A stretch of 64,000 nt of DNA, from positions 57,305-121,304 of the forward strand of contig CASFTV010000010.1 of assembly GCA_949297765.1 (NCBI GenBank), given 5' to 3'. This document shows positions 1-32,660 of the stretch, in pieces; position 1 is the first letter of the stretch, and each line of letters opens with the position of its first letter. Both the position numbers and the translations under genes were made by a program. The notes under the pieces were generated by a model, which saw only the letters and a program-made list of their open reading frames with translations, was not told the origin of the DNA and searched no databases. The stretch is from an uncultured bacterium (GTDB lineage: Bacteria; Verrucomicrobiota; Lentisphaeria; Victivallales; UBA1829).

Positions 1-2678
1 CGGTAGTCCTCGTCGCTCCACTTCAGGGAATCGAAGGTGATGACGACGCATGTCCCCGATTCCGCCATTTTCCGCACATTTTCCCAGACCCCTTTCCGGA
101 CCAGCGACGCATACGGGAAAACCGCAAGACGATAGGAGTTCTCCTTCAGACCGGCGAATGACCGGCAGCTCAGCGTGTCGGTCGGGAATCCGGAGAAGAG
201 CATGGCGCCGAAATAGCTCATGTAGTCCCGGTAGTTCTGCGCGGAGCTGTTCAGCATGCCGCGGAAACTCTCGAACGGATACAGGATCGCCGCCTGTCCC
301 TGCGGTCCGGCGGCTGCGAGCGCAAGAGGGGCTCCCGCTTCGATTTCCGCCTTGACTTCCGGCATGTAGTAATGCACGTTGGTGTCCCAGTGCCAGACCG
401 TGTTGCCCGAAACGCCGTGGATGATGTTCGACCAGAGCATCTGCCGGTAGTTCTCTTCGCCGAACGGCTTGTTCTCGCTGATCATCCGGTCGGAGAGGAG
501 GTAGAGATAGGAGCGGAGACCTTCGCTGTAGAACCGGGTCCCGTCCACGATCACGGTCAGGATGTTCTCTTTGCCGTAATTCAGGAGTCCGCCGATGTCG
601 AACTGATATTTTTTATCCCATCCTGCGACCGTGCCGATTTTTTTCCCGTTCAGCCAGAATTCGCCTTTCTGCGCCACGCCTTTTCCGTGGATGAGATACC
701 GCACCGTGCTGTCCAGAAAACTCTGCCGGACCACGCCCGAGGGCATGAAGAATTTGAAGCGGTAGCATCCCCATCCCTTTTGCCCCTTGAACTCCTCTGT
801 TTCGTCCCATGCGCCGGGAACCGGAATTTTCTTCCAGGAGGAGTCGTCGAAATCGACGGAGAACCATTCCGCGGGAATTTTGTTCCGGTCGGAGACCAGA
901 TTGAATTTCGCCATTCCGTGAAATTTTCCGAAACAGTTTTTCTCCATCGCTTTCGCGGAACTTCCGGACGCCGCCACGGTCGTCACGATGTTCTCCGTGT
1001 TGATGATGGGGCGCTTGATGTTGTGTGAAAGATAGTCGTGATAGAGGACGGAGTCCAGAATGCTCAGCAGCACGCTGGAGGAGTCCGCGGGCAGCCCGGC
1101 ATAGTGGAAGAAGCGGTAGCCGGTGTGGCAGAAATAGATGTCATTGACCTTGGCCGCCAGTTCCGGATCGACCGCCGCATAGCCGTCGAAATAATGGCTC
1201 TGCATCCGGCAGTCGTAGGTGAAGGGGGCATCGAAATGTTTCCGGAGCAGGCCTTTCACCCGTGCGGCTCCGGAGGCAAAATCCTCGCGCAGGAACTCCA
1301 GCCAGTCGTAATAGTTTCCCGGACGGCTGTTGTAAATATGGTTGAGAACCGAAAGCCGGGCGCTCCAGTCCATCGCCAGCTTCAGTTCTTTGAGATGGGT
1401 CGGCGCAACCTCGTCCCAGCTCCTGAAAGAGGTCCCCCAGACCTGATTGGCTTTTTCCAGCGTGCCGTATTTGGCGCGGACAAACGCGGAAAACGCCTTC
1501 AGCGGACGTTCATGGGTGGGGGTGTAGCCGGGTTCGCGCAGAATTTCATAGGTCAGCAGAGGAAGGCGGCCGAAATAGAGACGGTCGTTTTCAAATGTGC
1601 TCTCATAGAGCTTCCCCGCAGTTCCGGAATGCATGTCCAGACTCATCGAGTGATTCCCCGTGATATAGAACTCGCCGATCTCCGGATGCTTCTTCCGCAG
1701 CGGATAGAACGGAGAATACTCATACGACTGCGCAATGCACAGCTGCGGCAGCATCCGGTTGCGGAGAACTTCCGTCATGTAACTGAAGACATAGGAACGG
1801 TTTTCAAACCCGATTTCCACCTGTTTCTGCGGATTTTCGACCGCCCGGATCCCGTCTCCGTGATGCACCGCGATGTAATCATATCCGAGAAGGCCGCGAA
1901 GCCAGAGCGAATTGACCGTCCATTCCGAGCAGAGCGTTCCGAGATAGTAGTGGATTTTTCCGTTTTTGCGGAGGAAGCGTCCGTCGACTTCCAGCGTGTA
2001 GGGCGCGTCGGGGATGACACGCGCTTCGGAGGGCGGTGTCACTCGGGCCGGCGGTGGATTGATCTTCACGTCCCTGCGCACCTCCGCTTTCGGCACGGCT
2101 TTGCCCTGAAGCTGAAGAGCGATGGAACTTACACTCAGTTTCTCCGAGCCGGGCCAGTGCATGATGACAACGCCGGCATACGTTTTCTCCGAAAGAAGCT
2201 CTCTGGAAAGAGTCCATTCCATCGAAGCGTTGCGCCAGGTGCTGCTCTTCGGCAGGACAAAATCCAGCTTGATTCCGCCGCCGGCGGATGTCCGGAGCAG
2301 AACCATCTCCTTCTTCGCATTGAGTCGGAAAAAGCGGATCTGAATCATTCCGCCTCCCCGGTGGCGGACCGTCAGACGCAGTTTGCGCGGCCCGTCCTGC
2401 GGCAGTGCGAACGGCGTGTTTTCCGCCTGGATCAGTCCCTTCGGCGGAACGGCAAAGGAGAGATTCAATGTTCCGTTCTCTCCGGCATCCTTTTTCCATT
2501 CGACCGTGCCTCTGGCACCGTCGAAAAAGCCGGGATTCCAGTTCGACGCGGAACTCCCGCTTCCTTCGCGGAAGTCGCCGTTCCGGATCAGATTTTCTCC
2601 CCACTCCCCGTCGGCCGCACAGCAGAGCTGCGCCGCCAGAAGCAGGCCGGAGAGCCAGGCGTGACGAAATAAATTCAT
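1..2678 (-). CDS. Large secreted glycoside hydrolase-like protein (GH42/beta-galactosidase-like TIM barrel with N-terminal CBM-like module and GH2-type sugar-binding domain); 3' end runs off the window
   Basis: Not in the ORF track because it has no stop in the window. Manual translation from ATG 2678: signal peptide MNLFRHAWLSGLLLAAQLCCA, NLIRNGDF CBM-like start, GH42-like FVRAKYGTLEKANQVWGTSFRSWDEV, and DFDDSSWKKIPVPGAW...WLNGKKIG...LNYGKENILTVIVD (GH2 N-domain-like). The frame is still open at base 3. Confidence 0.75.
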   Translation of the reverse strand, partial: MNLFRHAWLSGLLLAAQLCCAADGEWGENLIRNGDFREGSGSSASNWNPGFFDGARGTVEWKKDAGENGTLNLSFAVPPKGLIQAENTPFALPQDGPRKLRLTVRHRGGGMIQIRFFRLNAKKEMVLLRTSAGGGIKLDFVLPKSSTWRNASMEWTLSRELLSEKTYAGVVIMHWPGSEKLSVSSIALQLQGKAVPKAEVRRDVKINPPPARVTPPSEARVIPDAPYTLEVDGRFLRKNGKIHYYLGTLCSEWTVNSLWLRGLLGYDYIAVHHGDGIRAVENPQKQVEIGFENRSYVFSYMTEVLRNRMLPQLCIAQSYEYSPFYPLRKKHPEIGEFYITGNHSMSLDMHSGTAGKLYESTFENDRLYFGRLPLLTYEILREPGYTPTHERPLKAFSAFVRAKYGTLEKANQVWGTSFRSWDEVAPTHLKELKLAMDWSARLSVLNHIYNSRPGNYYDWLEFLREDFASGAARVKGLLRKHFDAPFTYDCRMQSHYFDGYAAVDPELAAKVNDIYFCHTGYRFFHYAGLPADSSSVLLSILDSVLYHDYLSHNIKRPIINTENIVTTVAASGSSAKAMEKNCFGKFHGMAKFNLVSDRNKIPAEWFSVDFDDSSWKKIPVPGAWDETEEFKGQKGWGCYRFKFFMPSGVVRQSFLDSTVRYLIHGKGVAQKGEFWLNGKKIGTVAGWDKKYQFDIGGLLNYGKENILTVIVDGTRFYSEGLRSYLYLLSDRMISENKPFGEENYRQMLWSNIIHGVSGNTVWHWDTNVHYYMPEVKAEIEAGAPLALAAAGPQGQAAILYPFESFRGMLNSSAQNYRDYMSYFGAMLFSGFPTDTLSCRSFAGLKENSYRLAVFPYASLVRKGVWENVRKMAESGTCVVITFDSLKWSDEDY

Positions 2679-2893
2679 AGGATCAATCTCCTTCCATTCA
2701 CATGACAAACTTGAGCGGACGGGAGTTCCCTGTCCGTATTTTTTTATGAATCGCGATGCCGGGGATCTTCAGTTGCCGGCCGAGGGATTCCGGAGTTTCC
2801 CGGAGGGGGAAACTTGCCGACTTCCGGGGAGGGCGGCCGAGGGAAGACGCGTCTCCCCGGAAAGGGGTGGTGTCGGATGCCGTGATCCGGAGT

Positions 2894-3517
2894 TCAGGGC
2901 TGAGCGGGCTTTGCCGCAGGAGCTGCCGGGGCGGTCGGAACTTTATTGAACTGAAGCGAAACCGAAGAGACTTTCAGCTCCGTCTTGCTCGCCCAGGACA
3001 TGATGACGACATTTGCAAACAGATTCTGCGCAAGACGTTCCTTGGAAAGCGTCCACTCCGAAACGGTTTTCGTCCATCCTGTTCCCGGCTTCAGGACCTG
3101 CTCCAGCTTGACCGGGCTTCCGTCTTCCCGTTTGAGCCATGTGAGACCCTTGCCTTTTTCCACGGAGAAGAAACGGATCTAGATGAGTCCGCCGCCGTTG
3201 TGTTCCGTCGCAAGACGGATGCGGCGCGGCCCGTTCACCGGAAGACGGAACGGTTTGCTCTCCACCTGAATCAGTCCTTTTGCCGGTGCGGCGAATTTTA
3301 CCAGAAGGGCATTCGGATGCGCGGCGTCGCCGCCGGAAATCCGCTCGACGGATCCTTTTGCCCCGTCGAAGAATCCGGGATTCCATCCCTCCGCCGTTGT
3401 GCCGCCCTGTGCGAAGGTGCCGTTCTGGACCAGCGAGTTCTCCCACTGGGTTTCCGCCGCGGCCTGAAGGGTGAATGCCAGAGCTCCGAACAGAAGAAGT
3501 TTCTTATAAACGTTCAT
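2894..3517 (-). pseudogene. Secreted single-domain CBM-like protein interrupted by an in-frame TAG (3179-3181)
   Basis: ORFs 3179..3517 and 2894..3163 share a frame: GGGLI*IRFFSVEKGK aligns with GGGMIQIRFFRLNAKK of the downstream gene. Signal peptide present; Pro/Ala tail before TGA at 2894. Confidence 0.75.
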
Positions 3518-3571
3518 GGTGCTTTCCTTTCTTTTTGCATGTTTTTGTTTTATCGGTTGATATCCTGTTGA

Positions 3572-4231
3572 TCAGCGGAAGGTTGCCGTGTGCATGATCT
3601 TGTTCTGGAATCGGAAGAGGAATGTATTGCCCGCGGCGCAGAGAATCCAGGTCCGCAGCATGTGCGGCGCCGCGATCTCATTGCTGATTCCGATGTAGGC
3701 AACATTGAGCGCGTTGATGAACGGAGCGGGAATCTCCTCCCGGGAACCGCCCGTTTTCTCCGTCAGATACATGGTTCTGGAGGGATTCTGAATCCGGGTG
3801 ATCTTCCCGATCCATCCCGTTTCGTTCCCGAAATAGAAAAGACGGTATACCGCGTAGCCGCAGGAATTCCGCGGATGATACTCCGGATAGTAGCCGTCCT
3901 TCACAACGGCGCGGGACGGACAGTGATACACCGGTCCGCCCATCTTGCTCGACCAGCCGAGATAGGTTCCCAGTTTGCACTCCCATGTCTCCTTGTACTG
4001 AAAGAAATCAGGATTCGGAGAGTACGGCATGTAGTCCTGATTGTCCGCGCAGTACTGCTGAAGGGCAACTCCGCAGTTGCGCAGATTTCCCGCGCAGGCA
4101 ATGCTTTTTCCTTTTTCTCTTGCGCTGTTCAGCGCGGGCAGCAGCAGCGCCGCAAGAATCGCAATGATTGCAATGGAGATCAGAAGTTCGATCAGGGTGA
4201 ATTCCGAAACATGTGAAAAACGTCTTTTCAT
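3572..4231 (-). CDS. Prepilin-type N-terminal cleavage/methylation domain protein (DUF1559-like)
   Basis: [42 protein letters not shown], internal YHCPS, C-terminal H-X9-AG. Confidence 0.9.
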
Positions 4232-4342
4232 GATCCCTTTTTTCCTTTTTTCAGGGGAGGCGACGGCCTCCTGTTTGAGTTTTTCTCCACAATGTCTGGT
4301 TCGGCGGGCCGGATGCCGTGCCGAAATCCGGAAACGCGTGCA

Positions 4343-5479
4343 TCAGCTGTTTTTCATGCCGGCTCCTTGTTTCGGGTGGGAGGGCGGCGGTACGCAGCCG
4401 CAGGAACGCCCCGGAATGAAAAGCGGTGGAAGAAGAACACATTTCTTCCCTTCGGAAGGCCGGTTTTTCAGTGCATCCAGCATGGAGAGAAGCTGATCGG
4501 CCATGCCGCGGAGATCATGGCGCACTCCGGTCAGGCGCACCGGCGCAAGATCCTGAATCCATGGAAGTTCGCCGAACATGAAGAATGCGATGTCTGTCGG
4601 AATGCGGAGTCCGCGTTCCCGGACGGCTTCCAGAGCGCCGAGGACCGCACGGTCTCCGGACACCGCAAGCGCATCCATGTCCGGACAGCGCTCGAACAGC
4701 GCCCGGGCGGCATTTTTCGCATCGGCGAAACAGAACGGTTCGGATTCTCCCAGAAGACGCGGTTCAAATGCGAGGCCGAACTCTTCCATCACTTCTTTGT
4801 ATGCATCAATCACGAGATGATGTCCTGCAAATGCCGAAGTTCCGTTAATCATCCCGATCCGTTTGTATCCATGTTCGGCCAGATGCCGGATGCCGATGCG
4901 GACCTCTTCCGCGTCATCGTTTCCGACACAGGCGACCGACTCCACACCGATCGGGCGGCCCAGCACCGCAACCGGAATGTTCTTCCCCGCAAGATAGCGG
5001 AGTTCCCGGTCGCCCGGAATCAGACCGTTCAGGAAAATGCAGCCGCCGGAAAGCTCCTCCGCGCGGGCGATGAGTTTGTCGCGGATCTGTCTGGCGTCGG
5101 AGAGCACTTCCACGAGAAGGCGGTCTCCGCGTTCGGCAAGACGGCAGCTCATCTCATGGAGAATTTCCCGTCCGTAAAAATCCGCTTCCATGTGTCCGTA
5201 ATAGCAGGTGCAGAACACATGGACATCCCCGGAGACCGGGGCTTTCACCGTCTCCTTCGCGTGCGGCGAGAACTCCTGGCAGAGAAACGTTCCCGATCCC
5301 TGAATCCTCCGGAGAACCCCCTGCTGTTCCAGCGCCGCCACCGCTTCCCGCAGCGTGTTGCGCCCAACGCCGATCTGCTTGCTCAGCTCCTCTTCGACGG
5401 GGATCTTTTCTCCGATTTTCCAGGCTCCAGAGTTGATCTGCATCGTCAGAGAATGGATCGCTTTTTCACTTTTTGTCAT
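4343..5479 (-). CDS. GntR-HTH / LacI-type sugar-binding domain transcriptional regulator
   Basis: N-terminal GEKIPVEEELSKQIGVGRNTLREAVAALEQQGVLRRIQGSGTF; C-terminal periplasmic-binding-protein-like domain (RHLAEHGYKRIG, GLRIPTDIA). Confidence 0.9.
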   Translation of the reverse strand: MTKSEKAIHSLTMQINSGAWKIGEKIPVEEELSKQIGVGRNTLREAVAALEQQGVLRRIQGSGTFLCQEFSPHAKETVKAPVSGDVHVFCTCYYGHMEADFYGREILHEMSCRLAERGDRLLVEVLSDARQIRDKLIARAEELSGGCIFLNGLIPGDRELRYLAGKNIPVAVLGRPIGVESVACVGNDDAEEVRIGIRHLAEHGYKRIGMINGTSAFAGHHLVIDAYKEVMEEFGLAFEPRLLGESEPFCFADAKNAARALFERCPDMDALAVSGDRAVLGALEAVRERGLRIPTDIAFFMFGELPWIQDLAPVRLTGVRHDLRGMADQLLSMLDALKNRPSEGKKCVLLPPLFIPGRSCGCVPPPSHPKQGAGMKNS

Positions 5480-5493
5480 CGTAGGACGAATCC

Positions 5494-6210
5494 TTATTTG
5501 TCCGTTTTTTTCGTTCCGGGCAGGGCGGGTTTGACCGTTTCAGAAATTTTCTTTCCGAGTTCCTTGTTCGTTTCCGCGTTGAAATGGACACCGTCTCTCC
5601 ACTTCTTCCCGCATTCGCTGCGGTTCAGTGCCTGATAGACATCAATGACGGGAATCTGTTCCTCGGCGGCGATCCGGGCTGCCACCTTGTTCATCCGCAG
5701 CACGATGGAGTTGAAGTAGTTGTCCTTGACCGGTGTGCAGAGAATGATAAACAGTTTCGAACCCGGGTTTTTCGCTTTCAGATACTGGATCGCTTTCCGG
5801 TATGCCGACTCATATTCCGCCGGATTGGTGAACTGGCTGTGAAGCCCGTTGTTGAAGCAGATGACCGCGTGCGGAGCAAGGGAAAGAAACACTTCCAGCT
5901 CCTGAAGGTAAAGCGGATCTGTCACACAGCGCGACGAGGTCCACTGAGTGCAGTTCGCCGTTCCCCGGAGTCCCGCCGCAACCGACGGCATGTAATCCCG
6001 GCAGATCGAATCCCCGATAAACAGCGCCCGCGGAACATTCTTCGCCACAAGATTGGTCGCAAAAAACGTCGTCCACTCCATATTCTCCCGAATCCGGCTG
6101 GACCGCGGAAGCTGATAGTCGCGGAAATCCGGTTCCTTTCCGCTTTCTTTTCCACACACAGGAAGAAGGCTTCCCAGCATGCAGCATAAAAGAAGATGCC
6201 TCATTTTCAT
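5494..6210 (-). CDS. Secreted SGNH/GDSL family hydrolase (probable carbohydrate esterase)
   Basis: Blocks FIGDSI, FNNGLH, DGVH; signal peptide from ATG 6210 (the track ORF starts further upstream at 6288). Confidence 0.85.
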   Translation of the reverse strand: MKMRHLLLCCMLGSLLPVCGKESGKEPDFRDYQLPRSSRIRENMEWTTFFATNLVAKNVPRALFIGDSICRDYMPSVAAGLRGTANCTQWTSSRCVTDPLYLQELEVFLSLAPHAVICFNNGLHSQFTNPAEYESAYRKAIQYLKAKNPGSKLFIILCTPVKDNYFNSIVLRMNKVAARIAAEEQIPVIDVYQALNRSECGKKWRDGVHFNAETNKELGKKISETVKPALPGTKKTDK

Positions 6211-6575
6211 TTTTTCCGAACTCTCCTTCTGTTTGTCTCGATAAATAATGTTTTGCAGACGTTGCGGAATCATTCCTTCCTTAATCATCCTATGATAGCA
6301 TGAATTTTTGGAAAAGCAAATCTCTTTGGAAAATTTTTCCGTAAATTTTTCTTTTTTCCGGTTTTCCTCTCTTTTTGAGAGAACGGGGAAACAGCCGGAG
6401 ATCTTTTCCGGGGCCGTGACGGAATTTCCTGACGCGGTCTGCCCGGCGGGGAGGGGAACTCTTCTTCATTCATCCTTTCTCCGGAGGAAATTTTCCTGTA
6501 CCGCGGAAACGCAACGGGAAAACAATTCTTTTCCCTCCGACCGGCCCGGATCGGGAAACCGGACGGGGAAGATAC

Positions 6576-6604
6576 TTGACAAACGCCCGGGGTGGTGTTA
6601 TAGG
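6576..6604 (+). promoter_or_regulatory. Putative sigma70 promoter of the two-component operon
   Basis: TTGACA (6576-6581), 17 bp spacer, TGn-TATAGG. Confidence 0.5.
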
Positions 6605-6646
6605 TATCCAAATAATGAAGAGAACCTTAACGGCGGAACAGCAACG

Positions 6647-7333
6647 ATGAATCCGAAAATACTGCTGATTGAAGACGACAGCTCGATCTGCGACATGACC
6701 AAGATGAATCTGAATATGAACGGATTCCAGCAGGTCTTCTGCGCATCCAGCGGAGAGGAGGGGCTGACGATGGCGGCTCAGCTGCTGCCCGACCTGATTC
6801 TGCTGGACATCATGCTGCCGGGAATCGACGGACTGACGGTCTGCCGGAATCTGAAGAACACGCCGTCGCTGGCGAACGTTCCGATTATCATGCTGACCGC
6901 AAAAGGGGAGGAGAACGATATTGTCCTCGGACTGGAGATGGGGGCGGACGACTACATCACCAAGCCGTACAGCAGCAAAATCCTTGCGGCCCGCATCGCG
7001 GTCCAGCTGAGAAAGAAACAGGCTGCAGGACATGCGCCCCGGACCATTGTTCTCGGTCCGCTGTCGATCGACCTGACCGCGCACAGCGTCCGCCTGAACG
7101 GTGAACCGCTGCTCCTCACGGCGGACGAGTTCAAGACTCTGACACTTCTGGCCTCAAGTCCGGGACGGGTCTTCACCCGGAACCAGATCATCCGGGAAGT
7201 GAAGGGCGACCACTACTCCGTCACCGCGCGCGCGATCGACATGCATATTGTGAATCTGCGCCGGAAATGCGGCGACTGGGCGGACCATATTGAAACCATC
7301 CGCGGCGTCGGCTACCGGATTTCCGGAGACTGA
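6647..7333 (+). CDS. OmpR/PhoB-family response regulator
   Basis: KILLIEDD, PDLILLDIMLPG, MLTAK, GADDYITKP, winged helix ending IETIRGVGYR; ATG at 6647. Confidence 0.95.
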   Translation: MNPKILLIEDDSSICDMTKMNLNMNGFQQVFCASSGEEGLTMAAQLLPDLILLDIMLPGIDGLTVCRNLKNTPSLANVPIIMLTAKGEENDIVLGLEMGADDYITKPYSSKILAARIAVQLRKKQAAGHAPRTIVLGPLSIDLTAHSVRLNGEPLLLTADEFKTLTLLASSPGRVFTRNQIIREVKGDHYSVTARAIDMHIVNLRRKCGDWADHIETIRGVGYRISGD

Positions 7334-7338
7334 CGCGC

Positions 7339-9105
7339 ATGGCGACCACGGGAAAGGATACCGCATTTCTGTTTGTCCCCGCGATCATCGGAGGCATTAT
7401 CCTTCTTGCGATCATCCTTCTGGACATCCAGTTTTCCAACTTCCGGCAGGCGTATTTTCAGGAGGTCGCGGAGGAGACGAAACGGAACAACTCCTTTCTG
7501 GTCCGGGCGTTCCGGGATCTGCTGGAAACCGGGCAGGTCGATAAAATGCACCGCATGCTCAACAAGTATCACGGTCCGAATCCGGTGATTGTGAAGATCA
7601 TCGCCCGCGGCAAAGGGGTGATTATGGAGACGGAAGGGGTTCCGGCGTATCTTGCGGAACATGTGCGAAGACCGGAAATCAAAGGAATTTTCAAACAAAA
7701 TCATGATGAGGATGTCCTGGTCAATTTCAACCGGGCGCTGGAGTCCTTCATGATTTATCATTCCGTCCGATTCCGGGTGGGAAATCAGGATTATGTGCTG
7801 GTGACGGCTTCGAAATGCAACAGCATGACGCTGCTGATGCAGCAGACGAGACGGGCGATTCTGATTCTGACGGTTCTGGGGATTCTGTCGACGCTGGTGC
7901 TGGTCGTCTATTTCTGCTGCTGGATCCGTTCGCCGCTGAACCGGCTGTTTGCGAGCATGTCGCGGATTGCGGCAGGGGAGCTGGAGTGTCCGATCGAGGT
8001 CCCGAAAAGCGGACTGATCCGCGAGATCGGACTCTGCCTTCAGACTTTGACCGAACAGCTCAAACAGCAGATCGTCTCTCTGCAGGACGGAGCCAATGAA
8101 CGCGAAGCCGTGCTGAACGCCATGACGGAAGCGGTCCTTCTTGTCGATGCGGAGGGAAAAGTCGTGCGCTGGAACCGGACCGCGGAGGAGCTGTTCTATC
8201 CGGGACGGAAACTCCATGAACGCGGCGAACCGGAATGTCCCCCGGAATTCCGGGAATACATCGGAAAAATCGACCATGCGGTCCACACGGAAAAACGCTC
8301 GCTGCGGAGAAACGGACGGGAGTATCAGCTGCTGGTCAATGTCCTCTCGTTTTCGCGGGAGGGAAAACGCTTTTTCCTGATTTCCGCGACCGACCTTGCC
8401 GATCTCAACAAGCTGGAGGCGGCACAGCGCGAATTCATCGCGGCGATCTCCCATGAGATGAAAACTCCGCTGACCGGAATTGTCGGCGCGGTGGACGCCA
8501 TCAGCAACGGCGCGCTCGATCATGCGGAGTACAAGGAACGGTGCATCGAAACCCTGACCACGCAGTCGGAACGCCTTCATACTCTTCTGCTCAATTTCCT
8601 TACGCTGACGTCTCTGGAGAACCTGCATCCGAAATCCGAGGATGATTTCCTTCCGGTGCAGTCGTCCGCGGTTCTGCGTGGCGCGCTGGAACTCTGCCGT
8701 CCCGCGGCGGATGCGGCGGGCATCTCCATTGCCGTGGAGGAATGTGAAAATCTGGAGTTCCCCGGGGATTTCCAGCTTCTCCAGCAGGCGCTGTGCAATC
8801 TGATTTCCAATGCGGTCATCCACAGCGGAAGTTCCTCGATAGAGCTTTCCGCCGTCCGGACCGCGGAGGGAGAGATTGATTTCCGTGTCCGGGACCACGG
8901 CTGCGGAATCCCTGCCGAACACCGGGAACGGATCTTCAAACGCTTCTACCGGATCCCTTCCGGACAGAAGAAGCAGCAGGGAAGCGGAATCGGACTGGCG
9001 ATCGTGAAACATATCGCTCTCTATCATCACGGAAGTATCAAGGTCGATTCCGTTTCCGGAGGCGGATCGGAGTTCCATCTCCGGATTCCGGCTTTTTCCG
9101 CCTGA
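7339..9105 (+). CDS. PhoR-like membrane sensor histidine kinase (HAMP, PAS-like, HisKA, HATPase)
   Basis: Two TM segments, ISHEMKTPLT H-box, NLISNA N-box, DHGCGI, GSGIGLAIVKH. Confidence 0.95.
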   Translation: MATTGKDTAFLFVPAIIGGIILLAIILLDIQFSNFRQAYFQEVAEETKRNNSFLVRAFRDLLETGQVDKMHRMLNKYHGPNPVIVKIIARGKGVIMETEGVPAYLAEHVRRPEIKGIFKQNHDEDVLVNFNRALESFMIYHSVRFRVGNQDYVLVTASKCNSMTLLMQQTRRAILILTVLGILSTLVLVVYFCCWIRSPLNRLFASMSRIAAGELECPIEVPKSGLIREIGLCLQTLTEQLKQQIVSLQDGANEREAVLNAMTEAVLLVDAEGKVVRWNRTAEELFYPGRKLHERGEPECPPEFREYIGKIDHAVHTEKRSLRRNGREYQLLVNVLSFSREGKRFFLISATDLADLNKLEAAQREFIAAISHEMKTPLTGIVGAVDAISNGALDHAEYKERCIETLTTQSERLHTLLLNFLTLTSLENLHPKSEDDFLPVQSSAVLRGALELCRPAADAAGISIAVEECENLEFPGDFQLLQQALCNLISNAVIHSGSSSIELSAVRTAEGEIDFRVRDHGCGIPAEHRERIFKRFYRIPSGQKKQQGSGIGLAIVKHIALYHHGSIKVDSVSGGGSEFHLRIPAFSA

Positions 9106-9128
9106 TTGTCGTCCGGAAATCAGTATTT

Positions 9129-9179
9129 TGTCAAAATTCTGTCAAGACGGTTGTATTTGATTTTTTTTTATGCTATTTT
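9129..9179 (+). promoter_or_regulatory. Pho-box-like tandem repeat plus putative promoter of the RND operon
   Basis: TGTCAA at 9129 and 9140 (11-bp period); TTGTAT 9151, 17 bp spacer containing T9, TGc-TATTTT 9174. Confidence 0.5.
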
Positions 9180-9227
9180 ATATGTTGAATATTTCGTATT
9201 TCTTAATTCATGATGAGGATCTCAGGA

Positions 9228-10394: not shown

Positions 10395-10407
10395 CGGAGG
10401 ACGCCCG

Positions 10408-13554: not shown

Positions 13555-13689
13555 TCCCCTTCCGCGGACCGGAGAAAGTCCGCGGAAAACTTTCCTGAAA
13601 ATTCCCGCTGGAAATGGACCGCGGACGGGTGTATAGTAGCAGAACATCCGAAACAACAACGGAAACTTCAAAAAAAAGGAACCCGACGC

Positions 13690-14430
13690 ATGATTCAGCT
13701 CCCGATCGCTCTGCAGGCCTATTCCCTGCGCAAAATCTTCGAAGACAATCCGCTCCAGGCACTCCGGATCATCCGGAACGCCGGATTCAACGGTGTGGAG
13801 TTTTACGGCTCCCATTTTCAGCCGGAACTGTATGCGGCGCTTCTGAAGGAGACCGGGCTGGTCTGCGCCGGATGGCACACCGGAATCGACGATCTGGAAA
13901 AGAATTTCGACGGGATTCTCCGCCGCAATCTTGCGGTCGGCAACCGGTACATCTGCGTGCCGTATTTCAAGTCCGATTCCGTGGACGGATGGCTCGCCTT
14001 CGCCGGACGTCTGAATGCGATCGCCGAAAAACTTGCACGGTACGGGATGAGAACCGGATATCACAGTCACGCACACGATCATCAGAGTGTGCAGGGACGG
14101 ATTCCGTGGGAGATCGTTGCGGAAAACACCTCTCCGCAGGTGATTCTCCAGCTGGATACCGGAAACGCAATGTGCGGTGGCGCGGATGTGTTTTCCGTGC
14201 TGAGCAGATATCCCGGACGGAATCAGAGCATCCATCTGAAGCCGTATGCGGAAAACGGCGGGTATGAACCGGCGATCGGGGAGGATGATCTGCCGTGGGA
14301 GAAGATTCTCTCCTGGTGTGAAAACGAGGGGCGGACGGAGTGGCTCGTGATCGAATACGAGATGGAGAAAGATCCCGCCGCTGCATCGGAACGGTCTCTG
14401 CGTTTCCTGCGGAATCTCCGTCCCTGCTGA
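13690..14430 (+). CDS. Sugar phosphate isomerase/epimerase (xylose-isomerase-like TIM barrel)
   Basis: IALQAYSLR, GFNGVEF, GYHSH, LQLDTGN, SIHLK, WLVIEYE. Confidence 0.88.
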   Translation: MIQLPIALQAYSLRKIFEDNPLQALRIIRNAGFNGVEFYGSHFQPELYAALLKETGLVCAGWHTGIDDLEKNFDGILRRNLAVGNRYICVPYFKSDSVDGWLAFAGRLNAIAEKLARYGMRTGYHSHAHDHQSVQGRIPWEIVAENTSPQVILQLDTGNAMCGGADVFSVLSRYPGRNQSIHLKPYAENGGYEPAIGEDDLPWEKILSWCENEGRTEWLVIEYEMEKDPAAASERSLRFLRNLRPC

Positions 14431-14439
14431 GAGGCGGAA

Positions 14440-15257
14440 ATGTGCGTGAAACCGTTTTATCATCCTTATCCGGTTGGAAGACAGTCGGATTTCACGCTGG
14501 TCGCCGTGTTCCATGAATCGCAGGAATTCATCCGGAACTACACGCTGCCGTTCAATATGATCGCCATCTGCCTCCGCTCCGAAGGGCCGGATGCGTCGGT
14601 TTCGACGAACCTGAGGACGGGGGGCGCTTCTCCATGCGGGAGAACGATATCACCCTGATTCCCTGCAATCTTTCCCAGCAGTACTGTCATACGACCCGGA
14701 ACGAGCGCTACGGCATCCATTTCAAGCTGGAGCTCTATCCGGGCGTGGACGTCTTCAGCGGATGTACCGGACGGATCACCGAAAATTCACCGGAACTCCG
14801 CCGGGAGGCGGAGGACATTTTCGCCGAAACGGATCCTGTGCTCATGCTCTCCCGGTGCCGTGAATTCGCTCTCCGCTTCTGCCACCGCCACTGGCCGGAA
14901 CAGTACGGATTCCATCCGGAAAAGGTCCGGATGTTCGAGGAGATCCTCCGCTATGTCCGGAACAGCATCAGCGCGGAACTGACCGTGGAAAAGGTCGCGG
15001 AAAAGATGCACCGTTCGCCGGAGAATTTCGCGAGAGTCTTTCACGCGGTCTTTCACCGGACTCCGAAACAGTTCCTCCAGGAGGAGCTGTTCCGGAAGGC
15101 GGCGCAGATGCTGCTGGATCCGGAGGCGTCGGTGAAGTCGGTTGCCGACGAATTGAATTTTTCCTCCGAATTTTATTTTTCGAAGTTTTTCAAGCGTCTT
15201 TCCGGTTCTTCGCCGCGGGAATACCGGTTATCCTCTTCCGGCATTCGGAGAGGATAA
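14440..15257 (+). pseudogene. AraC-family regulator split by a frameshift in a G6 run (14619-14624)
   Basis: ORFs 14440..14658 and 14634..15257 overlap out of frame; one extra base gives ...RTGGRFSMRENDI... (about 272 aa). AraC HTH: SVKSVADELNFSSEFYFSKFFKRLSGSSPREYR. Confidence 0.75.
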
Positions 15258-16529
15258 GGCACCGGAAGAGTTTTTCTCTCTCCGCGGATCCAGAATCCAG
15301 CACTCCCAGTAGACCACCGCGCAGAACAGAATCAGGCAGACGGGAACAACCAGAATGGCTCCCTTCAATCCGAAATGGTCGCCGAGGAAGCCCATCAGCC
15401 AGGTGAAGACTCCGCAGCCGGGAATTCCCATTGCGGAAAAATAGATGTAGAGCATCGTGGAATCCAGTTTCGGCATACTGGTGACTCCATACACCTGAGC
15501 GGTCGGCCAGAACGGCGCAACTCCGATTCCGGAAAGGGTCAGAAGAAGATACAGCAGCGTGAACGTCAGCGGCCGCGGCAGTACTCCCGGTTCCAGAAAG
15601 GCCAGCAGAAACGTGACGGGGATTGTGCACAGTCCGCATCCCAGCAGAATGTAGCGCAGATGGTGCGGACGGGCAAAGTATCCGAATCCGGTCCGCCCGA
15701 GAAACATTCCCAGCGCGATGGCGCCGGTTCCGAGTCCCGCCACCCACGTTCCCGTATGGAAGTTCAGCTGGACGTAGGCCGCGGACCAGAAGGTCAGTCC
15801 GAATTCCGCGCCCGCTCCGAAGAACATCATCAGGCAGCAGATCCAGAACCGGGGAACCCGCGCAATCTCCACCGAATACCGCCACACCTCCCGGAATGTG
15901 ACGCCGCCGCTGACCTCCGGATATCTCTTCTGCGGATTTTCCCGCCAGAGAAACAGAAGCGCCGTCAGAAGCGTGAGCAGTCCGATTCCCGCAAGAATGG
16001 AGCGCCAGCCCATTCCGAGCGTCCAGAGCCCTCCCACCACCACAACAACCGCTCCGGTCCCGATCGACCAGAAGGAATGCGTGATGTTCACATAGCGTTC
16101 CGGCGCGTCCGGATGCAGATCCTGGACAAACGGCGTGGCGATCCCCTCGCAGATGCCTTCCCCGAATCCCGCAAGAAGCAGACAGGGGATCAGCACCCAG
16201 TAGGCCGGCGCGAATGCACACAGGAAAATTCCGCCGCCCATCAGCAGCAGCGATGTCCCCATGGAAAGGCGTTTCCCGATCCGTCCGGAAATCGTCCCGC
16301 ACAGCAGCAGCGCCGCCACCATCGTGATGCTGCGGGTCAGATGGAGGGTTCCGCCGGCCGCCATTCCGCCCTGATCCAGCGGAAACTGCAGCGCTTCGCC
16401 GATCGCCACGATCATCAGCGGAATCGACAGGGAGCAGAGGGCATAGGTGACGGAGGCGGAAAAGACGGCGTAATCGAACCGTCCGAAACGGAGTTTTTCG
16501 CGGGGCATGTTGCTGTTTTCTCCCGTCAT
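15228..16529 (-). CDS. MFS transporter
   Basis: 433 aa with about 12 hydrophobic segments; GTISGRIGKR MFS motif A-like. Confidence 0.9.
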   Translation of the reverse strand: MTGENSNMPREKLRFGRFDYAVFSASVTYALCSLSIPLMIVAIGEALQFPLDQGGMAAGGTLHLTRSITMVAALLLCGTISGRIGKRLSMGTSLLLMGGGIFLCAFAPAYWVLIPCLLLAGFGEGICEGIATPFVQDLHPDAPERYVNITHSFWSIGTGAVVVVVGGLWTLGMGWRSILAGIGLLTLLTALLFLWRENPQKRYPEVSGGVTFREVWRYSVEIARVPRFWICCLMMFFGAGAEFGLTFWSAAYVQLNFHTGTWVAGLGTGAIALGMFLGRTGFGYFARPHHLRYILLGCGLCTIPVTFLLAFLEPGVLPRPLTFTLLYLLLTLSGIGVAPFWPTAQVYGVTSMPKLDSTMLYIYFSAMGIPGCGVFTWLMGFLGDHFGLKGAILVVPVCLILFCAVVYWECWILDPRREKNSSGALSSPNAGRG

Positions 16530-16714
16530 CCCCGCTCCCGCCGCCGGCGTTTTCCGTGCCGGCGGATGCGGCGTTGCAGGCGGGGATGATTGTGTTGTTC
16601 TGTTGTCCCGGCTTCTCGCGGCAGTCGTTTCTGCCGGAGTCTGCCGGGCCGTGGAAAAATCTTCCGGTTAAGATACAGCGCAACCGGGAAATTTCAAGTC
16701 ATTCTCTTCTTTTT

Positions 16715-19700
16715 TCAGAACTCTATCCGGAGCGGATTGTTTCCTTCCGCGAGAGGAACAGACCATCCGTTGTCCTGTTTTTTCAGGGAGATTCGTTTTC
16801 CGTTGCGGAAGGCGCTTCGGGGTGGCTGTTCCGCGGAGAGAACCAGACGGGAGTTCGCTCCGGCGTCGGCGGAGAGGGTCAGAAGACGCGTCTCCGGATC
16901 GTACCACGCGGAACGGATGTTCAGTTCGCGCCAATCCCGGAACGAGATCCGCAATCCGTCCTCGTTCCAGAGAACCATCCCGATCTGGACGGGAATGCGG
17001 ATTCCGGGCCAGTCGCCCGTCCGCGGATAGGCCGCAAGACTCTTTTCCGCCGTCTCTTTCAGCGGAAAATTCCTTGCAAACACCGCCAGAGCCGGAATGT
17101 AGTCGGGAAGAATCCCTTTCTTCTGTTTCATCAGCAGCGGAATGGAACGGAGTTTCAGATGTGTCTCAATCGCCGCCGTTCCCCATTTCTGATACAGCAG
17201 AATGAGCTGTCCGGGAAAGCCCTGAGAGTAGTCGAACAGATCGTTGGCGGCGAAAAAGTTGCCGTTGGAGTTCGGAAAACGCATATATTTGGCTCCCTCT
17301 TCTCCGAAGCCGACGATCTGATAATCGGTCCTTCCGGCAAATTCCGGGCGGATCGTCTCAAAATATTTCCAGAAGAAGAGCCGGGCCAGCGTGGGAACGG
17401 CCTTTTTCGCAGCCCGGTAGAGCGCCTGTTCCTGTTCCGCAAGATCGCCGTTCAGTTCGGCAAGACGCGCATAGGCGAGCATGCCCGAGTATTCCCCGTT
17501 GAGCATGTCCACCCATGCGCCGACGCCCGTTTCCCGGCAGCTTCCCGCAAGGAACGCATAATCGTCAATGACCTTCTGATACCGCATCACATAGCGGAAA
17601 TAGTTCCAGTTCAGACGGATCGGATCCGCCTGTCCGAATCCGTCCGCGAGCTGACGGGCGATCCAGACGGCGACTGTGCAGGCTTCGTTGGAATCCCCGT
17701 AGATCACTTCCGAACCCATCCCGCCGGAATATTTCACCGTGTTCGGATAGAAACTGTTGAAGATGATCGGATACCGCAGATGCGAAAACGGCTCCTCGCG
17801 GTGACGGGCAAAGTTCTTGTACTGATACAGTTCCAGCGGTTCCAGAAAGCGGCGCCGGACCCGCTCCTCCAGACGAAGCCGGTTCGCCTCGTTCAGGAAA
17901 AACGCTCCCTGAAGCGCGGAGCAGATTCCGAAATTCCACGCAAACGGATCAATGTTCCGCAGCGGCCGGTCTTTTCCCGCCGGATTTTCCGGCGTCCATG
18001 CGTTCACGGAGACCCGTCCGCCGCACGACCAGCGCACACCGCCCTCGAAGCTCCGGTTCTGCGCCGCGTTGATCGTTTCCTTCTTCACGCCGACCGGCAT
18101 GAGATCGTCGTCCGGCGGAAGCGGGAGCGTGTAGCGGACCGCCCTCTGTCCGAGAACGCCGAGCAGCGGTCCGTGAAACGTCGGAATGCCGAAGTCGGTC
18201 ATCGTTCCCTTCGGAGAGACCAGCGGCGTCGCCTGCGCCATGAAACCGCACAGCGGAGGGAGAACGGCAAATTCCTGAACGGACGTATTCCAGTCGTCCT
18301 TTGTCCGCTCGAAACGGAAGACGTTGAGGATGTCAACCGCGTTCCGCTTCCGGTCGATCAAGAAAATCTCCTCGCATCCGACCGGAAAATTCAGCGCAAA
18401 ATTCAGCGAGAGGCGAATCTGTTGCAGAAGTCCGTCGGGCAGGGGGGCTTTCCCGTTTCCGCACTCCGTCTCCCGGACCCCCCACGGACGTCCCGTCGCG
18501 ACAAAGCCAAGTTCCCTGTCCGCACGGATTCCGATCCCCTCCACCGTACCGTTCCGGATCCGGGCGCTCAGTTCTTCCGGCTGTGTCGAGAAAACCACCA
18601 GAAGCGGACGGCTCTTCCCCGGACGGAACAGCAGGAGCCAGGGCGCATTCCATGCGCCGTCCTTCGATTTCCGGTAGAACGTTCCGCCTCTTTTCAGCGG
18701 AACGACCCGGATTCCCTCCGCCGTCTGATACGCGGCGGATTCCGCAATGTTTTCCAGATTCAGGAACACCTCTTTTTCCGGGAAACGCCAGCGGAGAAAC
18801 GGGGTCAGAAGGGAAAGCGACATTTCCCGAACACCGTTTTTCCCCTGAATCCGGTAATTTTTCCCGGTCCAGTCGATCCGGCTGACCGAGAGGGCCGCTT
18901 TCGCTGTCCCGTCGCTGATGCGCAGGAACGGACGGGAGTTCATTCCCGCACTGTCACGCAGATTCCGCACCCGGACCGTGATCCGGTTCTCTTTTCCCCA
19001 TCGGACCAGCTCCTGCGGAATCCGGTAGCGCCGCGGCGCCATCCAGTAACAGGGGGTCTCCTCGCCGGTTTTCCCGGCGGGAACACCGTTGAAGAAAAAT
19101 TCATCCAGATCGTCGATTCCGTCCTTTACCTCGAAGAAAAGTCCCTTTCCCTTCCATTCCGGATCCATGTTCAGGGAGGTTTCATATTCCACTACGCCGA
19201 TTCCCGACCAGAGTTCGCAGGGGTCCGCATCCGCATGATTCTCCGAGGCAAAGCGAATGTTTCCTTCAAGAACTTTCCGTGTCCAGTTCCGGAAGGGAAC
19301 GGACGCGACACCGTCGGACGCAAAGGAGTACTGCTGCGTTTCGCTGGCGACGCTCAGATCTTTTCCGACGCTTTCCACCAGCAGCGGCTCGCCGATCAGC
19401 CAGCCGAATCTGCCCATGCTGCCGCCGGAGAGCCCGAGACGCCACGATGCCGCTTCCTTTGCAGAGAGTCCCGCTTCTCCGGCCGCGGCCAGAACACGCT
19501 TCCGTTCCATTCGGAGCTGTTCGTTCCGCACGGCGCGGTCCCGCCTGTCCAGCTCTGCGGAAACCTTCTCGGAGGAGAGGGCGATCGCGCGCAGGAGAAA
19601 CTTGTCGTAAAATACCGAATCCGACGCATCCAGCCGGTTCCCGATTCCCGAACCGATGTGCAGAACCGATCCCCGTTCCGTCAGAAACGGCGTCCCGTCC

Positions 19701-20787
19701 GTGAACGACAGAAGCACGGCGGAACCTTTCTTCGCTTTCGCCCGGAAATGGACGGCGGGCGCGGCGTCCGTCAGCACCGTCTCCCGCAGAAGCGGATGAT
19801 TCTTCGCCGCGGCTGCGAGTTTCCGCCGCTCCGGAAAACCTTTCTGCGGGAGCGGAGAAAGATCGACGGGAAGCAGGGCGGCGATTTCCGGATCCCCGGG
19901 AAGGCCGTAGACGATCAGGCGCGTCCCCGCGTTCGCCTTCTTTGCGATCGTCCCCGCATTGCCGCTCCTGCCGACGCAGGAATAGACGAGGACATCCGCC
20001 GTTTCCGGAGAGTCCGCATCCTGAATCAGGCCGTCCGCATGTTCCAGCAGAAGATGGCGGAAACTCCAGTTCGGGATGCGGTCGTGAAATTCCCCGTGGG
20101 ACACGCGGCTTTGCACCAGCGCTGAGCGGTCGTCGTTGTCGAACTCAAACCAGACCTTGAGGGGGCGTTCCAGCTGTTGTTTTTTTTTTCGGGCGCGGGG
20201 AACGGGACCACGATGAAGTCCGTTCCGGAAGCGGAAAGTTCATCCGCGGAGACGATTCGGACATCCTCTACCCGGATGGATGCAGCGCTGCCCGGCGGAT
20301 TCGGATCGGTGTTCAGTACAAATTTGATCTGCCGGAGCTGGTAGACCCCGTCGCCGAGTTTGAAATCGGTGTCCAGGCCGAACACATGAGTTTTGAATTC
20401 TCCGTTCCGGACCGGGATGGTGGGACTCCTCGCCGTGATCCACTCCTTCCCTTTTGCATAGAGAAGTTCCACATTCAGAAAGGCATTTCCATTGCTTTTG
20501 TCCCCTTTCAGGCGGAAGATGAGCTTCTCCTGAGCCGCGGCATTCTGATTGAAATTGGCGAACGCGATTGCGTGGTTCTGTTTTGCGGTGTTTTTCAGCG
20601 TCATGGAAAATCCGCTGCTGCCGTCGCCCGTGACAGAGGCTTCCCCGTAGTTTCCGTGTCTGAGAATCTTGAAGCTCAATGGATTCTTCTCCTTTTCTTT
20701 CTCCCGGACAGGACTCCGCGTTTCCGAAAACAGCGGTAGTCCGAGTCCGAACGCCGCCAGAGCCGCCAGAAAAATTCGTTGTTTCAT
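16715..20787 (-). pseudogene. Very large secreted glycan-active protein (about 1357 aa if joined), frameshifted in an A10 tract
   Basis: Signal peptide MKQRIFLAALAAFGLGLPLFS at 20787. T10 at 20180-20189; one extra A gives PEKKKQQLERPLKVWFEFDNDDRSALVQSRVSHG, joining the 1133-aa ORF. GH2-N-like GIDDLDEFFFNG...RRYRIPQELVRWGKENRITVRVRN. Confidence 0.7.
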
Positions 20788-20827
20788 ACCGGTGAATTCC
20801 TTTCGTATTGTATGGTTTTGATCTTCT

Positions 20828-21541
20828 TCAGAGACTCCAGCGGCTGATGTCGGATTCCCACAGAAGCCCTCCGGTGGAATTGTAGAGCTTCCAGATGAAA
20901 ACATACGGCATTGCAACCCTGGTTTTCAGTGCATACTGGACGTGTCCGTCCACAAACGTGTAGTTCCGCGCCATTCCGTTGCCGTGGCGGTTCGCATTGA
21001 TGTTCTTGCTGGAGAGAAGATCCTGCGTGCTGACATGATTGTCATAGTTCGGTGTCACGGAGGTGTCGTACAGCATCACCGTGATGGAGGGCTGTTTGCA
21101 CTGTCCGCGCCGGACCCAGAAGTTCCAGTTATTCCCGTAGCGGTTCATGCCGTAGTGCGACGGCGTTCCGTTCGCGGTCGGTGCGCCTCTGCCGTTCGGA
21201 CACTCCCAGAGGCCGCTCGGACGGTCCGGATTGGTTGTCGCATGGTAGTTCACCGGCGCTTCGCAGAGGCCGATCTCGGAGATCAGATTGTGCCAGAATT
21301 TCCCTCCGCCGGAATAATTTTCCCAGGAGGTCGGAAGGTAGTCGTTGCAGCTGTCCGCGTACTGCAGACAATACATCGTCAGCTGCTTCAGATTGTTCTG
21401 ACAGGTACTGTTCCGCGCCTTTTCCCGCGCACTGTTCAGCGCAGGGAGAAGCATCCCCGCAAGAATCGCAATGATCGCGATTACAACAAGAAGTTCTATC
21501 AGAGTAAATTTTTTTACGGGATTTGGATAATATTTATCCAT
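20828..21541 (-). CDS. Prepilin-type N-terminal cleavage/methylation protein with H-X-DG C-terminal motif (DUF1559-like)
   Basis: [69 protein letters not shown]; ATG 21541 with AAGGAG upstream. Confidence 0.92.
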
Positions 21542-22571
21542 TTGCGGCAATCTCCTTTTGTTGCGATTGATATCGGATCAGTTCCATAGGAACGAGAATC
21601 TGTTTAATTTCGCGGTCTCCGTTCAGCAGTTCGGTCATGCGCTGAACCGTTGTTTCCGCGCGTTCACGGAATGGGAAATAGAACTCCTCCGCTCCCTCCG
21701 GCGTGTTCCTGAGGTGAAGACGGAACAGAGGTTCCGGCATTTCGATTCCCAGCTGCCGGCAGGCGCTCTGCAGAAGCGGAAGTCGCTGAGGATAGGTGAA
21801 CACCGCATCCCATTTTTTCCGGAGAAGAGCGTGGTACAGCTGATCGGGCTGCGTCATCTCTTCCGGCACGTCGGCAAAGGCGATATTCATGGGGGAGCCG
21901 CAGCATTCGAAGAATCCTTTCTGAATGGAGGGCAGGTCATTTTCCCGGTACCAGTCGCCGAGCGCATAGAGAATATTGGCTTTCCGGTCCTGCGCGAGTC
22001 TCCGGCCGATCTTGCGGCAGGCGGACGCCGTGTCGAAAACAACGGAATTGACCGACCGGATTCGGCGGTCGTCACAGATCACGGGAAGGCCGCTGTCCGA
22101 AAGCCGGCGCAGCAGCGACTCGCTGTATGTGAGCCGGTCGACCCAGATCAGTCCATCCCCCTGCGCACCCCGGATCTCTTCAAAAAGTTCCTCTTCTTTT
22201 GTCGAGGTGAGGGTGAGCTGCCGGAAATAGTATCCCGCATCCGTCACGGCTTTCCCGATCGTGCTGATGCTTTCCCACTCCTGGCTTCCGTAATAAAAAC
22301 TGCGTCCGTCATTATGAATCAGCAGGATCAGCGGCGGCATCTTCCCCGGGAACGGCGTCATCATCTTCCGCGGATTCGTGAAATTGCCTTTCCCTTTCAC
22401 CGGAATGAGATATCCCTCCTCCACCAGCTCCTTCAGCGCAATGGAGACCGTGCTGCGCGCCATCCCGAAATGCTCCGCAAGATTCCGCGACGACATGATC
22501 TGAACGGAGCGTTCTCCCGCATGATAGATCATCCCGACAACATAATGCCTGATTTTCAGCGTTTCTTTCAT
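21534..22571 (-). CDS. GntR-HTH / LacI-like sensor domain transcriptional regulator
   Basis: [38 protein letters not shown]; overlaps the prepilin start. Confidence 0.85.
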
Positions 22572-22591
22572 CCTCTTTCCCCGGATAAAAA

Positions 22592-22646
22592 ATCGGACCA
22601 CATCGGACCACTTTTAAAATTATATCACAGTTTTATTTTTTGTCAA
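22592..22646 (-). promoter_or_regulatory. Sigma70 promoter with tandem operator-like repeat
   Basis: Minus-strand TTGACA (22646-22641), 16 bp, TATAAT (22624-22619); ATCGGACCAC x2 at 22592-22611. Confidence 0.7.
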
Positions 22647-32645: not shown

Positions 32646-32660
32646 AAAGGAATCTGAATC

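Follow-up and report, generated by a model that had tools for sequence, protein, structure and literature searches.

Why would a gene for a pilin-like protein stand between a LacI/GntR-type regulator and a very large exported glycan enzyme, and why twice within one stretch of DNA? The question arises from a window of 64,000 nucleotides (nt) in the genome of a gut Victivallales bacterium (4.23 Mb in 92 contigs). The window is the whole stretch that we analysed, G000:C10:57305-121304, and coordinates given without a contig name are positions in it. The original prediction had seen the same gene order twice on the minus strand. This order is confirmed in both cassettes, but one gene is broken in each. 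By counting across the genome, we found that the pilin-like gene tracks very large exported proteins, not glycan genes in general. The two cassettes contain the following features.

Cassette 1
5494-6288, minus strand: GDSL esterase gene
4343-5479, minus strand: regulator 1, combining a GntR winged helix with a LacI-type sugar-binding domain
3572-4231, minus strand: pilin-like gene 1, 219 amino acids (aa), with a class III signal-type N-terminus (...SE/FTLIELL...)
2894-3517, minus strand: gene of a small secreted CBM-like protein, interrupted by an in-frame TAG (3179-3181)
1-2678, minus strand: gene of a giant exported glycanase of 1396 aa, running 1482 nt past the window start

Cassette 2
22619-22646, minus strand: sigma-70 consensus promoter, a pattern match only (TTGACA, 16 nt, TG-TATAAT; 12 of 12 matches)
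21534-22571, minus strand: regulator 2, combining a GntR-like winged helix with a diverged LacI-type domain
20828-21541, minus strand: pilin-like gene 2, 237 aa, DUF1559 type with a W/Y-rich head
16715-20787, minus strand: gene of a giant exported GH81-like protein, about 1357 aa if intact, beginning 40 nt after pilin 2
15228-16529, minus strand: MFS transporter gene (PF07690, 105 bits), 185 nt after the giant gene at the end of the cassette

Genes were called over the whole genome with a home-made and crude caller based on simple codon usage, which gave 3015 genes once the pilin hits had been added. A motif-plus-hydrophobicity pattern found 215 pilin-like open reading frames, corresponding to 214 genes, and a Pfam-based six-frame search returned 84 DUF1559 matches among the 150 candidates, out of 228, that it scored. 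The original prediction expected such pilins to be enriched between LacI/GntR-type regulators and exported glycan enzymes, and in the genome-wide count this enrichment is strong and well beyond chance. Among 140 LacI/GntR-type regulators, 65 directly precede a pilin gene (65 of the 214 pilins have one directly upstream on the same strand), and the background for the position directly after such a regulator is 107 of 3015 genes of any kind. The pilin itself directly precedes a protein of at least 900 aa in 107 of 214 cases. The median length is 998 aa for the same-strand gene after a pilin and 323 aa for other genes; at least 900 aa are reached by 56% of the former and 4.3% of the latter. Seen from the large proteins, 130 of 226 genes of at least 900 aa have a pilin within two genes upstream.

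When proteins with a signal-like N-terminus, recognised by our own crude pattern, are sorted by length, the numbers with a pilin gene directly upstream are as follows.

Below 300 aa: 12 of 288
300-499 aa: 14 of 301
500-699 aa: 11 of 118
700-899 aa: 9 of 53
900-1199 aa: 63 of 96
At least 1200 aa: 34 of 52

The share is 4-9% among signal-bearing proteins below 700 aa and about 65% among those of at least 900 aa. Among proteins of at least 700 aa, 125 of 157 pilin-linked ones look exported, against 76 of 232 unlinked ones. This size step is the strongest single clue to function. Sulfatases, looked for as small exported glycan enzymes for comparison, were not found in the genome.

The step bears directly on glycan capture, the explanation put forward in the original prediction. 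In the form considered here, each pilin head would bind the glycan that its operon degrades, one common retractile type IV filament would carry the heads, and retraction by PilT would draw the polymer to the surface for cleavage by the giant enzyme. We consider this explanation a live alternative, though on the whole unlikely. The link follows the size of the exported protein and not glycan metabolism, and the step at 900 aa is sharp. A pilin lies within three genes upstream of 19 of 27 GH2-domain genes of at least 900 aa (18 directly), against 2 of 10 shorter ones. For GH42-like genes the counts are 25 of 30 at 900 aa or more and 7 of 21 below, and the baseline over all non-pilin genes is 344 of 2801; GH2 and GH42 genes below 900 aa are rarely linked.

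Using a fixed seed, we drew 40 of the 214 pilins at random and annotated their surroundings with Pfam. A LacI or GntR/PBP regulator is directly upstream of 11 of them and a divergent AraC regulator accompanies 6. In 19 cases a protein with a GH, CBM, CE or lectin-like domain is encoded in the next two same-strand genes, and in 3 more a glycan-domain protein is encoded just upstream. The downstream families include GH2, GH5, GH42, GH3, alpha-amylase, CBM9, CBM4_9 and NPCBM. Most of the other sampled pilins precede proteins of about 1000 aa or longer that have no Pfam family, and a few are not part of a cassette, one of these lying in a type II secretion operon and one before nrdR. All recognisable Pfam families in the sampled downstream genes are glycan-related or of unknown role, with no protease or lipase among them, which speaks for glycan capture. 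The giants, however, already bear CBM9, CBM4_9, NPCBM and galactose-binding modules of their own, a point against a separate lectin on the pilin.

A further clue is the ratio of the two genes. Among 190 directons that hold a pilin, 115 have exactly one pilin and one giant and 7 have two of each, including orders of the type pilin-giant-pilin-giant (PGPG). There is one pilin per giant enzyme even inside one operon and not one per substrate, which again argues against glycan capture. The size link and this ratio fit enzyme-specific export or display at least as well as glycan capture. Because the ratio is near one to one, the size step is sharp and the linked proteins carry an export signal, we favour an enzyme-specific role: the pilin-like protein may be a filament subunit reserved for one giant enzyme, which it would link to a common type-4-filament machine so that the enzyme is exported, displayed on the surface or both. 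We hold this reading tentatively, at somewhat less than an even chance.

Some cassettes depart from the simple order. The genes of a family of seven secreted proteins of 218-324 aa (six of them 302-324 aa) each follow a pilin gene and precede the gene of a giant (969-1018 aa), for example at C3:136532-137446, C36:21895-22851 and C65:3067-4023; the one member scanned had no Pfam match. In another pilin cassette a reverse-transcriptase (RVT_1) gene is found downstream, at G000:C2:59441-60577, and the 4-kb gap before it holds a GH2-domain frame that the gene caller missed.

In the window, regulator 1 matches PF00392 (66.2 bits) and Peripla_BP_3 PF13377 (79.8 bits), both above the cut-off, and is a GntR-HTH/LacI-type hybrid. 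Regulator 2 stays below the cut-off of 27 with PF00392 (24.4 bits), has no Peripla_BP match and reaches NF008452 with an E value of 1.4e-3; its family placement is by homology to regulator 1 (24% identity, E 9e-5). Its gene runs 8 nt into the start of pilin 2. The extended sigma-70 consensus sits before regulator 2 and faces a divergent GHL6-family gene (22853-24844).

In the cassette 1 giant we recognise a signal peptide, a CBM-like module at the N-terminus, a partial match to the GH42 TIM barrel and a sugar-binding domain of the GH2_N/BetaGal_ABD2 kind. Its GH42 match (PF02449, 23.6 bits, cut-off 21) covers only profile positions 147-264 of 376, and PF02837 (28.7 bits, cut-off 28) and PF13364 (23.0 bits, cut-off 23) lie at or just above their cut-offs. 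The broken CBM-like gene beside it encodes a stand-alone paralogue (50% identity) of the giant's N-terminal module (C10:59647-59982). Four relatives have open frames of 219-271 aa for it, three of these in same-genus genomes with 219-222 aa and 78-79% identity. Contigs of samples X2 and X3 cover the TAG at 3179-3181 and show no difference there among the matches listed.

For the cassette 2 giant no Pfam match was obtained at E ≤0.001. Its structural model has a predicted local distance difference test (pLDDT) score of 86.7, and the best matches in the PDB are GH81 endo-beta-1,3-glucanases (6fop, E 7e-11) at 10-12% identity, with template modelling scores of 0.34-0.38 on the query and 0.50-0.54 on the target. 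The description of this protein as hydrolase-like holds at the level of the modelled fold only. The MFS transporter that ends the cassette is probably the inner-membrane importer of its products.

The giant gene is read in two frames, 20026-20787 and 16715-20239, which are split within a run of ten A at 20180-20189. Intact relatives at 70-73% identity have 1344-1356 aa, and five orthologous giant loci are in frame without the A10 run; with nine A in place of ten the gene would stay in frame. The frameshift appears to be a true allele and not an error of assembly, because a contig of a second sample from the same study crosses the run without a gap and with the same length, with single-nucleotide polymorphisms nearby. 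We speculate that transcriptional slippage at the run could still yield some full-length GH81-like product. The whole genome holds 13 A/T runs of length 10. Phase variation at homopolymers was considered as a general mechanism and rejected: of 97 long runs in the genome (A/T of at least 9 or G/C of at least 8), 2 are in pilin-linked giants and 2 in pilins, with no enrichment.

What kind of protein, then, is the constant partner? The original prediction described two pilins with a common N-terminal helix and divergent, aromatic-rich heads, and the sequences agree: identity is 56% over the first ~64 residues, the heads are unalignable, and W and Y together make up 11.0% and 11.6% of the two heads. 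Pilin 2 matches PF07596 with 32.3 bits (cut-off 23.3) over profile positions 2-47 of 268 only, and TIGR02532 with 21.8 bits (cut-off 16.3). Pilin 1 matches TIGR02532 with 20.1 bits against the same cut-off and has no PF07596 match at E ≤0.001. With GspG TIGR01710 both match in the helix only (29.5 bits for pilin 1, 32.8 bits for pilin 2), under the cut-off of 88.85, and an NCBIfam scan at E ≤0.01 gave no match to TIGR04294 (H-X9-DG) for either. By eye, pilin 2 has a related C-terminal motif, H186-X11-D198-G199-H200, and H-x(7-13)-DG[HSN] occurs in 148 of the 214 family members. Conserved positions of pilin 2 in an alignment of 120 sequences (A2) are the helix, C47, C114, H186 and D198-G199-H200. 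Pilin 1 has a divergent C-terminus with H...GGN in place of H-X9-DG, kept in the genus; a frameshift as its origin was rejected because the three same-genus orthologues examined have the same H...GGN end.

The structure of pilin 2 was predicted from 120 relatives (pLDDT 80.7). The result is an N-terminal helix of about 50 residues (14-64) and a small sheet. In a structural search against representatives the model matched EpsG (Z 5.6, root-mean-square deviation 3.2, 95 aligned residues), PilA4 (5.5), ComP (5.2), PilV (4.8) and PulG (4.3). Of the 20 best VIA matches, 17 belong to pilins or pseudopilins. The fold modelled for pilin 2 is that of a type IV pilin or pseudopilin, with modest structural support because all Z scores are below 8. 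Foldseek gave no match of the model in the PDB at E ≤0.001, the top weak matches being type IV pilins, and a profile search of PDB sequences matched the N-terminal helix alone and found no solved DUF1559 head. The head had been put forward as a place to look for sugar pockets. A pilin-type fold was recovered, but no sugar-binding pocket or lectin fold was found and the structural matches are only pilins, which weakens the glycan-capture explanation. When the pilin 2 head (residues 40-237) was paired with the N-terminal module of its giant (22-199), complex predictions scored 0.02 and 0.01 against a mark of 0.32, in a job that left about 1100 enzyme residues outside and had no controls; these scores speak neither for nor against contact.

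The composition of the heads points the other way. Across the family the median of W plus Y is 9.4% in the heads against 4.2% in the proteome, a level that 0.4% of other proteins reach, and Asn is enriched 1.7-fold. Such Tyr/Trp/Asn-rich heads would fit sugar binding, as would the fast divergence of the heads beside a conserved helix. Support of another kind for glycan capture comes from two planctomycetes, in which gold-labelled dextran was seen on pili-like fibres (PMC5394234, whose passages on the fibres name no subunit gene). The organism studied here belongs to a different lineage, and a tie between those fibres and DUF1559 is presumed.

Metagenome contigs join positions 4146-4162 and 21471-21486, both of which code for the conserved N-terminal helix of the two pilins. 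These contigs most likely represent other paralogues that share the stretch, which could be a substrate for recombination between cassettes.

A filament subunit needs a machine, and the original prediction pointed to a pair of PilT genes in the window. Both pass TIGR01420, with 361.1 and 412.6 bits against a cut-off of 319.1.

31179-33716, plus strand: PilT/PilU pair of retraction ATPases, 488 and 351 aa, with no adjacent pilus gene

The neighbours of the pair are a ferredoxin gene and a glycogen phosphorylase gene. In the first ATPase (31179-32645, 488 aa), about 120 extra residues at the N-terminus precede the PilT core. Judged by the presence of the genes, the pair could serve the cassettes. 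The genome has three PilT-type ATPases, two of which are this pair. Its single type II secretion operon, on C5, includes four pseudopilin genes, and at C24:17256-26962 a PilM/N/O-like cluster is followed by two tandem secretins (841 and 900 aa). C63 encodes two PilB-like ATPases, C17 has a PilC-like gene and C15 encodes a PilD-like peptidase; two Tad-like sets are present as well. Peptidase_A24 genes are found on C15 and C2. No canonical short major pilin was found beside the type IVa pilus-like genes; this vacancy, together with the three PilT-type ATPases and the pilus-like machine, is what glycan capture on a retractile filament would draw on. Because both sets of machinery are present, either the type II secretion or the type IVa pilus-like machine could take family members as subunits.

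Whether the pilins are assembled at all is a matter of their leaders. In both window pilins a short, charged leader precedes F-T-L-I-E and a hydrophobic helix, as in type IV pilin N-termini. Residue -1 is Glu in pilin 1 and Lys in pilin 2, not Gly; across the 214 genes it is Gly in 14 and Lys, Arg or Asn in 93. This distribution speaks for an explanation in which the pilin-like protein is never assembled and remains uncleaved in the inner membrane with a periplasmic head, where it either assists the giant during folding as a holdase or escort or binds oligosaccharides as its partner. The Pfam name of the family, SBP_bac_10, is that of a solute-binding protein, and in the type II secretion operon (G000:C5:41120-52117) the GspG- and GspH-like genes retain Gly at -1. 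Their GspI- and GspJ-like neighbours, however, have Cys and Lys in that position, which suggests a prepilin peptidase with relaxed specificity that may be permissive for the family as well. In addition, Phe12, Thr13, Leu14 and Glu16 are invariant in alignment A2 and Ile15 is nearly so. Conservation of this FTLxE type is expected only when pilins are processed and assembled, and the invariant helix start would imply both here. The model, too, is a pilin fold and not a periplasmic binding-protein fold. We regard the unassembled helper as improbable.

The pairing can be followed outside this genome. The relatives found by homology are Victivallales or Lentisphaeria metagenome-assembled genomes. 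Relatives of the GH81-like giant occur at 51 loci, of which 40 could be assessed; 27 of these 40 have a same-strand pilin-like gene upstream, two of them with N-termini masked in the record, and among loci of at least 45% identity all 5 that could be assessed have one. The cassette 1 order is kept in the three same-genus loci examined, one of whose pilins has a disrupted N-terminal helix. In a GTDB sample of 61 genomes across the phylum, large pilin expansions are nearly confined to this order, and one genus of the same family has almost none. Among the matches listed for 20 genomes of the order, which are kin and not independent, GH2 frames of at least 1200 aa occur only in genomes with at least 64 pilin candidates, and none is listed in six genomes with 20 or fewer. 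On a still wider scale, a DUF1559-type search gave 219,830 cluster representatives at E ≤0.001.

We can now set out the favoured reading, in which the pilin couples its own enzyme to a filament. What was observed is the gene architecture with its genome-wide statistics, a synteny that is conserved, and the two modelled folds, pilin and GH81-like. Each cassette would be a sugar-switched operon driven by its LacI/GntR-type sensor, with sugar control suggested by the domain types and co-transcription by the short gaps. The sensor would drive one private type-4-filament subunit and one giant Sec-exported glycanase with its own binding modules, and some cassettes would add an inner-membrane sugar importer. 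The pilin-like protein would enter a type II secretion pseudopilus or a type IVa pilus-like machine that the cassettes have in common, and by tying its enzyme to the filament it would lead the enzyme through the outer-membrane secretin, to display at the cell surface, or both; PilT-driven retraction could then return enzyme-bound glycan to the cell. Filament assembly and contact between pilin and enzyme are the steps that we infer.

Several observations weigh against this reading. About a quarter of the pilins lack a giant neighbour, and 49 of the 190 pilin directons hold one pilin and no giant. Among the GH81-like loci that could be assessed, 13 of 40 have no upstream pilin. A universal docking module was not found in the giants, whose N- and C-terminal modules fall into several clusters and 161-163 singletons, and the cassette 2 giant is in none of the large terminal-module clusters. 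Heads and giants have diversified together only in part: in 47 of 123 cases the giants that go with best-matching heads are homologous, against 11% by chance, and the overall Spearman correlation between heads and giants is 0.04, reached by 14 of 500 permutations. The lectin-like, Tyr/Trp/Asn-rich heads are explained more directly by glycan capture. Processing and assembly of the pilins are uncertain, because the Gly at -1 that classical prepilin peptidases need is present in only those 14 of 214 genes.

Part of this list would agree with the absence of any specific partnership. In that case pilin and giant genes duplicate as units and ride sugar-induced promoters, and the pilins serve the envelope in a general way, for instance in adhesion, in phage evasion or by making filaments diverse. 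The weak deep co-diversification, the 49 directons without a giant and the 13 related loci without a pilin are all to be expected then. The position of the pilin is nevertheless highly ordered, directly after the regulator and before the giant, and the size step is sharp. The pair is also kept at 47-73% protein identity across genera, and, among the matches listed, giant GH2 genes and the pilin expansion co-occur or are both absent across the genomes of the order. An explanation without partnership appears to us very unlikely.

Other parts of the window touch the cassettes less directly. Between the two cassettes lie a two-component system and an RND efflux pump, as assigned by Pfam. Positions 60001-64000 have a G+C content of 44.8% against about 57% elsewhere and contain a Fic/DOC plus helix-turn-helix gene (61570-62634); this stretch comes after the gene of an F5/8 type C domain protein (58173-60305) and may be an acquired island.

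How do these cassettes compare with known systems? The SusC/SusD polysaccharide utilisation loci of Bacteroidota are many parallel, substrate-regulated loci, each with a sensor, with glycan enzymes that are exported or at the surface, and with a step of uptake. In contrast, no match to SusC, SusD or ABC binding-protein families was found among the 51 window proteins scanned; the recurring non-enzyme partner here is pilin-like, and uptake in cassette 2 would be by the MFS transporter. The pul secreton of Klebsiella exports a giant, maltose-regulated pullulanase with a pseudopilus machine, one full secretion operon for one enzyme. In the Victivallales genome many enzymes would share a single machine, and every enzyme would bring an additional pilin.

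The nearest precedent for a pilin that recognises a secreted protein encoded next door is found in type IVb minor pilins. CofB and TcpB are reported to bind the operon-encoded secreted proteins CofJ and TcpF and to be needed for their release through the filament machine (PMC6048534, PMC9565799, PMC10120004). Those are single pairs, one per pilus operon, in pathogens and with small cargo. The present genome differs in having about a hundred candidate pairs, scattered away from the machinery genes and with putative cargo of 900-1800 aa. In two Lentisphaerae strains, secretion-system genes are reported to have gone up on laminarin (PMC11361711).

The original prediction called the DUF1559 family expanded in Planctomycetes-Verrucomicrobia-Chlamydiae (PVC) bacteria and its function unresolved, and two papers are in line with this: Planctopirus has 68 paralogues, two of them essential (PMC10632474), and Rhodopirellula has 74 (PMC2754498), in both cases described as of unknown function. 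Pilin 2 resembles this family (PF07596, TIGR04294) in passing PF07596, in its methylation-type helix and in its C-terminal H...DGH. The window pilins and their paralogues differ from it in that neither window pilin matches TIGR04294, pilin 1 has no PF07596 match and most copies lack Gly at -1. In the literature that we found on DUF1559, the family is not linked to glycan enzymes, and we found no paper on pilin-glycanase cassettes in PVC bacteria. A fixed pilin slot between a sugar regulator and a giant exported glycanase is not described in any of the papers that we searched.

DUF1559-type pilin-like proteins are among the largest families of unknown function in PVC bacteria, and how type II secretion and type IV filament machines choose their cargo is still poorly understood (PMC10120004). 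The genome studied here offers a sharp rule: a pilin gene stands directly before about two-thirds of the signal-bearing proteins of at least 900 aa and almost never before smaller ones. A bolder extension, which we think unlikely, is a code of one pilin for one cargo, in which each giant exoenzyme in Victivallales, and perhaps across the ~220,000 related clusters, brings an interchangeable pilin into a common filament machine, and a PilT-retracted, enzyme-tipped fishing line takes the place of SusC/SusD. If that were true, modular and co-regulated adaptor pilins would be the means by which export of the type II secretion kind recognises its substrates. Should the rule stem from cargo coupling, the family would gain a function, the breakdown of polymers by gut Lentisphaeria without Sus-type systems would be explained, and about a hundred natural pilin-cargo pairs per genome would be at hand for studies of recognition.

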